Shown: positions 6,369-8,454 of the stretch, piece after piece | How positions within the stretch are numbered: position 1 is the stretch's first letter | Layout: the number at the start of each line of letters is the position of its first letter | Assembly: GCA_045535075.1 (NCBI GenBank) | Contig: JAZSKX010000008.1 | Span: forward strand, 1-24,830 | DNA length: 24,830 nt | Source: Candidatus Spyradenecus sp. | Lineage (GTDB): Bacteria > Verrucomicrobiota > Verrucomicrobiia > Opitutales > UBA953 | Reading direction: 5' to 3' | Translations under genes and position numbers: made by a program | Notes under the pieces: model-generated | The model's database searches: none | What the model was told of the DNA's origin: nothing | Seen by the model: only the letters and a program-made list of their open reading frames with translations

Positions 6369-6397
6369 AAGCCTAACGAATTTCCCATTCGGTAAGC
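6369..6397 (-). repeat. Left 29-bp inverted repeat; putative tyrosine-recombinase core site
   Basis: Minus strand reads GCTTACCGAATGGGAAATTCGTTAGGCTT, identical to 8426-8454 on the plus strand. Internal imperfect dyad GCTTACCGAA-TGGGAAA-TTCGTTAGGC. Confidence 0.9.
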
Positions 6398-6399
6398 AA
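6370..6399 (-). promoter_or_regulatory. Putative sigma70 promoter overlapping the left recombination site (TTGCTT-N18-TAGGCT)
   Basis: -35 TTGCTT at 6399-6394 and -10 TAGGCT at 6375-6370, 20 nt upstream of the ATG at 6349. Motif match only. Confidence 0.55.
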
Positions 6400-6507
6400 G
6401 GTGATTTTCGGAAAAGCGTTGTGTTTCGGATGGCACGGGGAGGCGGAGTTGTTGCGGAGTCTTTCCGGAGCTTATTCTTTGGGTGTGGTTGCCCCACACT
6501 CACATAT

Positions 6508-6596
6508 CGGCTTGAAAAGCCGGACAACAATAACCGCAGGTAACTGCGTTACCTGCGGGATCTGCATAAAGATATGATGCGCTTGGAAAGCGCAAC
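6508..6596. repeat. Multi-hairpin REP-like end of the IS200-like element (downstream end)
   Basis: Three hairpins: CGGCTT-GA-AAGCCG, CCGCAGGTAAC-TGC-GTTACCTGCGG, TGCGCTT-GGA-AAGCGCA. Imperfect inverted copy at 7120-7207. Confidence 0.85.
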
Positions 6597-6615
6597 GATG
6601 CAGCGGCTTCGAGAC

Positions 6616-7068
6616 TTAGTCTTTCTGCCAATATTGTTCGTCCGGATTGATACCGTTTTCCTGCAGTATTTTTCTGTATTCGCTCTCAAAATTTACGACC
6701 TTGTGATGTTCCCGCTGTCGAGCAATGTAGGCGACGACACGCTCTTTGTCGGCTTCGCTCACGGCAAGCGCGGCGTATTGGCTTCCCCAAGCAATGAAAT
6801 CCGGAAAAATCGTATGCTGTTTTTTCAGCCAGGCGTGAGTTGAGGTTTTTAATTCTTTTACAAAATCGGAGACTGCAATCGAGGGATGAAGATCGACCAA
6901 AAGGTGAAGATGATTGGGAATTCCGTTTATTCTGTGAAGTACGCATTTCTTTCCGCGAACAAATCCCCAAATATAACGGTAGAGCTTTTCCGCGTGTTCG
7001 TTCGGGAACGCGTCGCGACTGTATTTGGTGCGAATGATAACGTGGAGAAGCAGATTCGTGTAACTCAT
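6616..7068 (-). CDS. tnpA: IS200/IS605-family (RAYT-like) HUH Y1 transposase
   Basis: MSYTNLLLHVIIRTKY, HUH motif NHLHLL, FIAWGSQY, catalytic YIARQREHH; 150 aa; no tnpB. Confidence 0.9.
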   Translation of the reverse strand: MSYTNLLLHVIIRTKYSRDAFPNEHAEKLYRYIWGFVRGKKCVLHRINGIPNHLHLLVDLHPSIAVSDFVKELKTSTHAWLKKQHTIFPDFIAWGSQYAALAVSEADKERVVAYIARQREHHKVVNFESEYRKILQENGINPDEQYWQKD

Positions 7069-7119
7069 GGATAAGAAAAACGACAAAGAAAATCGTTTTT
7101 AGCGTAACGGCAACACAAT

Positions 7120-7207
7120 GTTGCGCTTTTTAAGCGCATTTCCCTTTGCCGGTCTCCACAGGTAACTTGCGTTACCTGCGGTTATTATTGTCCGGCCTTT
7201 TAAGCCG
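7120..7207. repeat. Multi-hairpin REP-like end of the IS200-like element (upstream end)
   Basis: TGCGCTT..AAGCGCA, CCACAGGTAAC..GTTACCTGCGG, CGGCCTTTTAAGCCG. The reverse complement aligns with 6508-6596. Confidence 0.85.
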
Positions 7208-7349
7208 TTCGGATTTCGGGGAGCATTGCCTTTTGCAATCAAAGAAAGGTGTTCTGTCACGGAGGATAATCATGCGGATATTGTTCCCGACGGACTTTCG
7301 GAACAACGGTTTTGTTGCGTTTTTCAAGACAGTTGACTGTGGGGAAACA

Positions 7350-8402
7350 TCATCCGAACGTTCCCGCCCAAAAACGCTCGGCGGCGGCAAACGTTACTCC
7401 GCGCATCGACAAATAGCGCGTGCGCAAAAGGCGCGGGGACGAGTGCCCCATCTCGCATTGGAGCTGCGGGAGGTTTTTGAAAAATTTCAAATGATAGCTC
7501 GCGAACGTGTGGCGTAGCACGTCCTGTTGCCACGGGTTTTCCGGTGAGCGCCAGCCGGCGGTGCGGCGAATGCGTTTCCACTTGCGTTGCCAGTTCGGCG
7601 GACAAATTTTTTCGTCGGAAAAACGGGAACGCGCGGCAAGCAATTTTTCTAAAACCGGCAGAATGCTGACATGCCGGCTTCCTCCCGTTTTGCTGTGTAT
7701 CGGCGAAATCGAAATCACTTTTTCTTCCCAATCGATGTCGCTCCAGTAGAGGCGCTCGACTTCGCGCGGACGAATGCCCGCAAACAACATCAGTGCGATC
7801 GCGGGAACGCATTCCCGCAAGTTCAGCTTCCGCGAGGCAGAGAAAATTGACGCGATTTCGACAAGTGACAACGGACAGATTTCACGCTCCTTCGGAATAG
7901 GAAAATCCGTCGCCGTTATCGGGTTTTCCCGGCACCACCCGTGCCGCACACAATAGGCAAAAAACGAATGAAGCACGGCGCGCGCCTTGCGCCGCTGGCG
8001 CGGGGTGTTGAATGCAATTTCAAGAATTTTTCCGAACGTCGGTGTATCCGCTGTATGGATACGCATAAGCGAACTTGTCGGGAATTGAGACAAAATCGAG
8101 GAAAAAACTTGCCGATAATCACAAATTGAGCGTTCCCGCAAATGGCTTTTGGAAACGAGGAATTTCTTAAAAGCTTCGCGAAAATTCGGCGTACGGCGTT
8201 CCCGCGAGGCTGCATCGCAACCGATGCGAAAAATACTCCGCAAGCGACACAGCTTTTTCGTTCGACCGAGCTCGCTGAGTTCTTTGACGAAACGCGCGGC
8301 ATCAAGCACGCCGATATCCGTATTTTCGAGGATTTTCTGCGCGCTCGCCGCCTGTGCCACGAGCTCTTTGCTGACCCGAATTTTAAAGCCTTTCGTTTTC
8401 AT
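7350..8402 (-). CDS. Tyrosine recombinase / site-specific integrase (candidate invertase)
   Basis: Catalytic residues: GIRPREV (R), SKTG (K), DVLRHTFASY (R; the first His of HxxR is replaced by Asp), MGHSS (H), RTRYL (Y). Core-binding region ending AYCVRHGWCRENP. ATG is 23 bp from the right repeat. Confidence 0.92.
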   Translation of the reverse strand: MKTKGFKIRVSKELVAQAASAQKILENTDIGVLDAARFVKELSELGRTKKLCRLRSIFRIGCDAASRERRTPNFREAFKKFLVSKSHLRERSICDYRQVFSSILSQFPTSSLMRIHTADTPTFGKILEIAFNTPRQRRKARAVLHSFFAYCVRHGWCRENPITATDFPIPKEREICPLSLVEIASIFSASRKLNLRECVPAIALMLFAGIRPREVERLYWSDIDWEEKVISISPIHSKTGGSRHVSILPVLEKLLAARSRFSDEKICPPNWQRKWKRIRRTAGWRSPENPWQQDVLRHTFASYHLKFFKNLPQLQCEMGHSSPRLLRTRYLSMRGVTFAAAERFWAGTFG

Positions 8403-8425
8403 AGCTCCACCAATCTACCCGCAAA

Positions 8426-8454
8426 GCTTACCGAATGGGAAATTCGTTAGGCTT
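8426..8454 (+). repeat. Right 29-bp inverted repeat; putative tyrosine-recombinase core site
   Basis: GCTTACCGAATGGGAAATTCGTTAGGCTT, the exact reverse complement of 6369-6397; 13 bp upstream of the fnlA ATG. Confidence 0.9.

Follow-up and report, generated by a model that had tools for sequence, protein, structure and literature searches.

The stretch of DNA analysed here (the window) is the whole of a 24,830-base contig, C14, of a Candidatus Spyradenecus genome, G000, which comprises 1,949,087 bases in 18 contigs and has a G+C content of 51.9%. It includes a segment of 2.09 kb that is bounded by a pair of 29-bp inverted repeats and encloses genes for a tyrosine recombinase and an IS200-like transposase, with a glycan operon reading outward from it on each side (Table 1). 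The segment is found in both orientations among related genomes, and we discuss it as an inverton that may select between the two operons.

The repeats, the recombinase and the flanking operons

An inverted-repeat search of the window gives the two repeats as 100% complementary copies of 29 nt with 2028 nt between them. Each copy reads outward as GCTTACCGAA-TGGGAAA-TTCGTTAGGC, its asymmetric 7-bp spacer lying between 10-nt arms that agree at 8 of 10 positions. An earlier reading of this DNA, made from the letters and their open reading frames (the sequence-only reading), had described these identical repeats, their imperfect dyad arms and spacer, and a tyrosine recombinase gene between them, and had taken the repeats for a core site of the tyrosine-recombinase type; all of this is borne out. 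It had also placed the start of an operon 19 bp outside the left repeat and 13 bp outside the right one. The distances are correct (left, 6350-6368, with the ATG at 6349 on the minus strand; right, 8455-8467, with the ATG at 8468). However the first gene on the left is not intact, being a 61-aa remnant of an epimerase, and the IS200-like Y1 transposase gene that accompanies the recombinase within the segment had not been mentioned.

The repeats are specific to the segment, as is to be expected of an inverton. With up to 3 mismatches a 27-mer of the repeat has 2 matches in the window and 0 in 100 shuffles, and its 2 matches in the full 1,949,087-base genome are the two segment ends only. With only two places in the genome it is not a dispersed repeat, which was a case that the sequence-only reading had named as one that would count against it. 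The repeats lie outside coding sequence, upstream of start codons, and the arrangement is thus not a shufflon or a coding inversion of the hsdS type.

The recombinase matches the PF00589 (Phage_integrase) model at 41.1 bits (cut-off 27.1, E = 2.1e-10), and this is the only Pfam family matched on the enzyme, which is thus not a serine invertase of the Hin/Gin kind. In an alignment of 13 sequences R211, K238, R297, H320 and Y330 are invariant and match the GLRVSE, LRH and GH motifs of XerD, while D294, also invariant, occupies the position of the first His of XerD, so that five of the six catalytic residues are canonical. The enzyme is not itself a Xer protein, as it scores far below the NCBIfam equivalog cut-offs for XerA, XerD and XerC (46.8 against 220, 38.6 against 329.6 and 37.1 against 335 bits respectively), and there are two sites in inverted order here and not the one site of a Xer/dif system. 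There are no internal stops among the best 13 matches to the recombinase, the reading frames being intact, and its orthologs are always enclosed by a pair of sites. G000 has a paralog of 45% identity on contig C15, around which no convincing inverted-repeat pair was found.

With regard to the operons, the view that sugar-pathway genes read outward on both flanks is supported, with genes for a UDP-glucose dehydrogenase (ugd), an epimerase and a GT4 glycosyltransferase on the left and for FnlA, an FnlB-like reductase, a UDP-GlcNAc 2-epimerase and another GT4 glycosyltransferase on the right. On the left ugd begins 52 nt after the epimerase remnant. On the right the FnlA model (578 bits) and the WbcJ model (357 bits) are the best matches but remain under their equivalog cut-offs, and the wecB model gives 210.5 bits against a cut-off of 210.15. 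The name "L-FucNAc branch" that had been given to this operon is thus well-founded but not proven, FnlA and the reductase being assigned by models that fall below equivalog level.

Table 1. Features of the segment and its flanks, in coordinates of the window
Feature	Coordinates	Strand	Remarks
IR-L, left recombination site	6369-6397		7-bp spacer 6381-6387 between outer and inner arm; breakpoint relative to G007 falls here
IR-R, right recombination site	8426-8454		Inner arm, spacer TGGGAAA 8436-8442, outer arm; breakpoint relative to G007 falls here
Tyrosine recombinase, presumed invertase	7350-8402	-	350 aa; PF00589
-35-like TTGCTT, putative half promoter	6394-6399	-	Recombinase-distal end, A-rich tract before it
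-10-like TAGGCT, left	6370-6375	-	In fixed left outer arm; 18 nt separate it from the -35-like box and 20 nt from ATG 6349
-10-like TAGGCT, right	8448-8453	+	Fixed right outer arm; 14 nt before fnlA ATG; faces AAGCTT (8424-8429, no TTG)
Terminator-like hairpin	6534-6558	-	11 pairs and T-rich tail, between cargo gene and distal end
Cargo, IS200/IS605-type	6508-7207	-	Y1 transposase gene 6616-7086 within 37-nt inverted repeats 6508-6544 and 7171-7207; PF01797, 1.3e-21; NF033573, 62.4 bits (cut-off 55)
Epimerase remnant, WbpP-like	6164-6349	-	61 aa, N-terminal; first open reading frame of left operon; full length (322 aa) in G001, G013 and G002
Left module	2521-6112	-	UDP-glucose 6-dehydrogenase 4865-6112; NAD-dependent sugar epimerase 3803-4861; GT4 2521-3834
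Right module	8468-14198	+	FnlA 8468-9487; FnlB-like reductase 9573-10835; PDDEXK_3 10832-11218; UDP-GlcNAc 2-epimerase 11259-12434; GT4 12999-14198

Inversion between related genomes

We compared the locus with those in 18 other genomes of the genus, of which 12 carry recombinase orthologs (55-97% identity). The related loci are from Opitutales of animal guts (Ca. Spyradosoma and Ca. Spyradenecus), in the phylum Verrucomicrobiota. G000 and G007 are 95-98% identical across the region and their flanks are collinear, but 6365-8455 is reversed, with the direction changing inside both repeats. In G001 and G013, an independent pair, the flanks are collinear at 86-92% identity, the internal pieces are reversed, and the reversals again end in the repeats. 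Looking for the opposite orientation in relatives was one of the checks proposed in the sequence-only reading, and the result is a flipped segment in two genome pairs with breakpoints within the repeats, as in an inverton; the recombinase gene does, as it had supposed, ride inside the flipping DNA.

The genes at the junctions tell the same story. In G000 the fnlA start adjoins the recombinase-proximal end, and in G007, G010, G011 and G018 it adjoins the distal one. For the epimerase start the adjoining end is distal in two genomes, G000 and G013, and proximal in G007, G010, G011, G001, G002 and the metagenome contig L116. Nine elements have both ends on one contig, and range from 1.2 kb (G005, with the recombinase only) to 3.7 kb. 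In these the core CGAATGGGAAATTCG stands inverted around the recombinase ortholog, with two of the nine having core variants and G005 having 2 mismatches. Of the 18 relatives within the genus 13 contain the 22-nt site, and it occurs in 0 of the 118 genomes taken from four further genera of the same family. The pattern reversed, as a control, gave 3 matches over all 137 genomes. A scan of metagenome contigs for the site gave only L116, with its proximal junction, which is too few for orientation counts.

The other genes within the segment vary. The cargo is IS200-like in G000, G007, G010 and G011, a HipA-like and a Fic-like open reading frame in G001, and Fic-like in G013 and G002, with none in G005, the HipA-like and Fic-like names coming from reading of translations and not from a family scan. 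As the cargo differs between species, the recombinase and its two sites are the constant unit. In G000 the 37-nt repeats of the cargo fold as strong hairpins, and there is one other copy of a Y1 transposase gene in the genome, of 50% identity (C10:483-941).

On these data we have very little doubt that the segment inverts by site-specific recombination, and two other explanations of the repeats can be dealt with here. A recombinase accompanied by selfish-looking cargo, IS200-like here and HipA-like or Fic-like in relatives, could be part of a mobile element with terminal inverted repeats that had inserted between two operons. However the bases just outside the repeats do not form the direct repeat that an insertion sequence or transposon would leave, there are only two sites in the genome, across orthologs ranging from 55 to 97% identity the element stays between glycan genes at a constant place in the chromosome, and in relatives the segment is inverted and not absent or relocated; we consider a mobile element very improbable. 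The 29-mers could alternatively be transcription-factor operators common to the two divergent operons, which would fit the occurrence of one sequence equally far upstream of each first gene, but they always enclose a recombinase. An operator role in place of recombination has next to no probability and we exclude it, given that the inversion breakpoints fall in the 29-mers.

The ends of the segment and a proposed split promoter

The two ends of the segment are not alike. Read outward, the end distal to the recombinase start has, in all nine elements, an A-rich tract, then ccTTGC, then the inner arm, and TTGC is present at 0 of 11 proximal ends, which have AAGC or AAGT in 11 of 11. In the outer arms TA(G/T/A)GCT is found one base past the core in 20 of 20 cases, and the inner arms vary at the equal positions (TA, CA, AC, CC or AT). 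The conservation of this box in the outer arms points to a constraint beyond recombinase binding. At the left junction of the window TTGCTT (6399-6394), an 18-nt spacer that is the recombination core, and TAGGCT (6375-6370) together have the layout of a sigma-70-type promoter.

We suggest that the locus would work as follows. The recombinase would bind both dyad arms of each 29-bp site and exchange strands in the 7-bp TGGGAAA, and the segment would flip. The segment would hold only half a promoter, the A-rich tract and the -35-like ccTTGC, at the end far from the recombinase start, and each fixed flank would hold the other half, the -10-like TA(G/T/A)GCT in its outer arm, 14-20 nt before the start codon of the outward-reading glycan operon. 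The recombination core would then double as the 18-nt spacer of a composite promoter, and strand exchange in the 7-bp spacer would move the -35-like box and its A-rich tract to the opposite flank. The flank joined to the distal end would be transcribed and the other, facing AAGC, would be silent. In the orientation of the window the left module (epimerase remnant, ugd, NAD-dependent sugar epimerase and GT4) would be ON and the L-FucNAc-type module (fnlA, fnlB-like, fnlC and GT4) OFF, with the reverse in G007.

Several features of the locus fit this proposal. The sites are only 13 and 19 nt from the start codons, which leaves no room for separate promoters, and the terminator-like hairpin at 6534-6558 argues against read-through from the recombinase gene as a source of left-operon transcripts. 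The promoters of the G000 tRNA genes have an A/T-rich tract, cTTGAC or cTTGCC, a 17-nt spacer and an unusual -10, TTynAT, the -35 being the strongly conserved element; a score of 9 of 12 or better is reached by 18 of the 42 regions upstream of tRNA genes and by 3.75% of 2000 random 90-mers. A Shine-Dalgarno-like 4-mer precedes 9.2% of 1220 long open reading frames, with 6.9% in a control window. The genome is thus poor in Shine-Dalgarno sequences and short A-rich leaders are normal here. Upstream of start codons in G000 there is an excess of A at -14 to -11 and of T at -9 to -7.

Sites of the same kind occur away from the main switch. In G007, about 20 kb from it, there is a mini-inverton of 245 bp with no gene inside (C5:22316-22589; L144, 1508-1767), which has the same arms but the spacer TGCGTAA. 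One of its ends bears TTGC and the opposite end AAGC, and past its TTA(A/G)GCT arms lie two divergent glycosyltransferase genes. This suggests that one recombinase may serve several switches whose differing spacers would keep them from recombining with each other. Solo TTGC-type sites lie upstream of genes in G009 (C4:19250-19271, L128), G018 (C4:63152-63173, L143) and G004 (C25:59315-59336, L147), and in that of G004 the core is decayed, with two changes, while TTGCAC and TATGCT are kept. In G009, which is 97% complete, no recombinase ortholog was found with this query, the best match having E = 1.8e-13 and 27% identity.

However a number of observations weigh against the proposal. TTGCTT agrees with TTGACA at only 3 of 6 positions, and TAGGCT fits only with an 18-nt spacer, since a spacing of 17 nt, as in the tRNA promoters, misses the invariant last T. 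The consensus scorer gives 7 of 12 at both junctions, and a promoter scan of 5900-8900 gave 1 site, which is not at either junction. Very short leaders, of about 8 and 13 nt, are predicted, and in the window a pseudogene remnant opens the operon that would be ON. For the recombinase gene itself a conserved box, TA(A/G)ATT, stands 8-9 nt before its ATG, but a matching -35 was looked for and not found. The elements compared are relatives, and the nine of nine at the distal end are not nine independent trials. Finally, the two orientations are seen in different genomes.

The weakness of the -10 and -35 matches leaves room for an inversion with some other regulatory outcome: there could be a full promoter elsewhere, one flank only could be turned ON and OFF, or it could be expression of the recombinase or cargo that changes, the TTGC/AAGC asymmetry then reflecting accessory recombinase contacts. 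In Akkermansia, as discussed below, the TTGAC end faces the recombinase gene in 16 of 18 invertons, and control of the enzyme may thus be part of the logic of the family. Set against this are the same TA.GCT box on both flanks within so short a distance of the start codons, the gene-free mini-inverton of G007 with the same two-flank layout, and the solo site of G004 in which both boxes have outlasted the core. We regard an outcome of this other kind as unlikely, although it deserves serious attention.

It is most likely that the promoter is split, with the -35 inside and the -10 outside, rather than being carried whole within the segment, and the full two-way split-promoter switch seems to us probable, with a good deal of reservation. 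The promoter halves, the mutual exclusivity of the modules and switching within a population we infer from sequence, and the selection of operons by flipping, which the sequence-only reading had proposed, is suggested by the conserved asymmetry of the ends and by the parallel with Akkermansia.

Orientation within populations

Twenty public sequencing runs in 10 studies contain the stretch, in all cases as k=31 contigs and with a best share of 0.47. In the four runs examined, from four studies (X1, X5, X6 and X9), a stand-alone contig of 2095 nt spans 6368-8454 and the left-flank contig stops at 6389 or 6397; the strains concerned are without the fnl flank. An unaligned end base suggests that the repeat is of 30 nt in those strains, which is k-1. 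The k=31 contigs therefore carry no orientation information, and we rejected the breaks at the repeats as evidence for or against flipping, as with a 30-nt repeat a break needs no mixed orientation.

A better hint comes from a contig of G004, C19, which is 7,786 nt long and runs from site to site. The 55 nt at its start, when reverse-complemented, equal the 55 nt at its finish (29 nt of flank and the 26-nt repeat), beyond which the ends diverge, and the flank sequence was found nowhere else in the 97%-complete G004 assembly. Either the sample contained both junctions or the repeat is in truth 55 nt or longer, and we favour mixed junctions because the flanks in the related G018 differ directly outside the repeat. 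Contigs also start at or beside a site in G012 and G017.

These data bear on the possibility that the inversions are rare accidents between short repeats, or relics of a dead switch, with no phase variation today. All of the differences are between genomes, and the G000, G007 and G018 contigs run straight through the switch, indicating that one orientation dominated those assemblies. However there are at least 2 independent clean inversions between close relatives, the recombinase reading frames are intact and the sites perfect or near perfect, and there are the G004 contig with the same 55 nt at both ends and the contigs of G012 and G017 that begin at or beside a site. A 29-bp repeat is moreover a poor substrate for general recombination, which also counts against accident. 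We think it improbable that the switch is dead or accidental.

Relationship to the invertons of Akkermansia

Homologs of the recombinase, of 38-49% identity, are frequent in Akkermansia assemblies. Directly upstream of these homologs there are 18 invertons (loci L049-L110), each with a pair of perfectly inverted 15-nt cores of the form CGGATTnnnAATCCG that are 144-182 bp apart. In all 18, cTTGAC stands 1-2 bases from the core at just one of the two inner ends, and in most of them the outer flank away from the recombinase has C followed by TATACT, TATGCT or TACGCT. The halves are joined as TTGACA-N17-TA(C/T)(A/G)CT in 2 of the 18 (L049 and L054), and in the 16 noted above it is the recombinase that the TTGAC end faces. 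We suggest that this family of recombinases is the candidate invertase of Akkermansia.

Akkermansia invertons are already in the literature. According to Gracia et al. (mBio 2026, PMC13343947), an inverton adjacent to cps1, with the motif CGGATT..AATCCG, switches the capsule of A. muciniphila ON and OFF in culture, mice and humans and affects association with the mucus layer, and these authors attribute the motif to Jiang et al. (Science 2019). The word "recombinase" is absent from the main text of that paper. Another (PMC11892184) gives 32 such invertons in A. muciniphila and ascribes a "previously described Akkermansia promoter motif" to Jiang et al. 2019, in which the design split between -35 and -10 may already be in print. 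In the literature texts searched the invertase of the Akkermansia invertons and their promoter logic are not described, and the term "split promoter" was not found in the papers searched for it. In the PhaVa survey (PMC10028968) gut Verrucomicrobiota, represented by Akkermansia only, have the most intergenic invertons per genome, 5.55.

The likeness is close. Both groups are gut organisms of the same phylum with DNA inversion at a capsule or glycan locus, the sites have the form CG(G/A)AT-spacer-AT(C/T)CG, homologous tyrosine recombinases adjoin them, and promoter-like halves, TTGAC and TATACT in Akkermansia, straddle the site. The Akkermansia invertons are, however, segments of 144-182 bp beside the recombinase gene and are described as ON/OFF switches for one locus. 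Here in contrast the segment is 1.2-7.7 kb with the recombinase and variable cargo inside, the core is of another sequence, and both flanks have a -10-like box and a glycan operon, as would be expected of a two-output switch. At 2.09 kb and with its recombinase inside, the segment of the window is not of the small intergenic form with the invertase outside, and only the G007 mini-inverton is small. The core here, CGAATGGGAAATTCG, has the same form as the published Akkermansia motif but another sequence, and it is the published motif that adjoins the Akkermansia homologs. The locus is thus a tyrosine-recombinase inverton related to the Akkermansia capsule invertons but outside their published motif group. 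Capsule invertons with this type of recombinase and site were already known in Akkermansia, and the locus is less novel than the sequence-only reading had implied.

We put forward tentatively, with our doubts about the whole slightly outweighing our belief in it, the following combination: that the locus is a natural two-output toggle in which the crossover core forms the spacer between -35 and -10, a single mobile -35 and the A-rich tract that goes with it pass back and forth between two fixed -10 boxes, and alternative nucleotide-sugar and glycosyltransferase modules are mutually exclusive; that the recombinase family and the split design also underlie many Akkermansia invertons; and that a change of spacer, as to TGCGTAA in the G007 mini-inverton, would let one enzyme run several separate switches.

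Comparison with other switches

The fimS switch of E. coli, with FimB and FimE, is alike in that short inverted repeats flank a promoter segment and a tyrosine recombinase inverts it, but it has the whole promoter inside, the recombinase genes outside and one output. In Campylobacter fetus sap one promoter, borne on an invertible segment, can drive either of two opposed flanking genes, much as we propose here, but the system depends on general recombination in long homologous 5' regions and is not known to have a dedicated tyrosine recombinase, and it is S-layer proteins that are switched. Hin of Salmonella is a serine invertase, and a complete promoter on its segment drives one operon, the alternative flagellin being shut off indirectly by a repressor. 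The invertible promoters of Bacteroides capsular polysaccharides (CPS), with Mpi and CPS-adjacent recombinases, were reportedly described by Krinos and colleagues in 2001.

The Hin/hix H segment resembles the present one in having the recombinase gene within the invertible segment and in giving a choice of two surface antigens (Hin is mentioned in PMC10028968). Bacteroides are likewise gut commensals whose surface glycans vary through the inversion of promoters flanked by short inverted repeats (as cited in PMC13343947 and PMC10028968). However there a complete promoter lies in an inverton of about 200 bp and each locus is turned ON or OFF, whereas here the promoter would be split and one inversion would choose between two modules; in Bacteroides the choice among loci is made via UpxY/UpxZ (PMC11685472).

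The locus thus gives a candidate invertase family and a rule that can be tested, -35 inside and -10 outside, in a version in which one flip would exchange sugar modules and not switch the capsule off. If true, this would explain variation of the surface glycans of small-genome gut Opitutales against phages and host immunity, and synthetic biology would gain a compact two-output recombinase switch.

Other observations on the locus

The 5' pieces of genes persist beside the switch while the genes behind them are replaced. The 61-aa epimerase remnant is present in G000 and G007, nine epimerase codons are joined in frame to a GT4 glycosyltransferase gene beside the switch in G010 and G011 (proximal flanks of L025 and L026), a fnlA remnant of about 120 bp lies beside it in G018 (L030, 10883-11004), and G007 holds the -10 box, leader and MKVLVTGGA start twice. 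The retention of such remnants supports the view that the switch has probably been resident at the locus for a long time.

A second UDP-glucose dehydrogenase gene is present in the window at 19939-21171, with about 80% DNA identity to the switch-side ugd at 4865-6112 (as aligned to the copy in G007), and what the left module would contribute is therefore chiefly the NAD-dependent sugar epimerase and GT4. There are also genes within the glycan locus that are not for sugar synthesis: that for the PDDEXK_3 nuclease-fold protein lies between fnlB and fnlC, and further along are those for a HipA_C protein with a MarR-type N-terminus (14202-15518) and a Schlafen AlbA_2 / HATPase_c_4 / Fic-like_C protein (17060-18646).

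The RNA fold at the distal end of the segment has a z of -3.2, which is due to the IS200-type hairpins.

The 9-mer GCGGGAACG occurs 1581 times in the 1.95 Mb of the genome and its complement 1663 times, where about 9 per strand are expected, giving about 1 per 600 bp. Copies in the window include those at 5877-5889, 6074-6089, 7799-7810 and 8196-8207. They are often paired in inverted, terminator-like fashion (for example L035, 10192-10235), and resemble a dispersed signal of the DNA-uptake or REP type.

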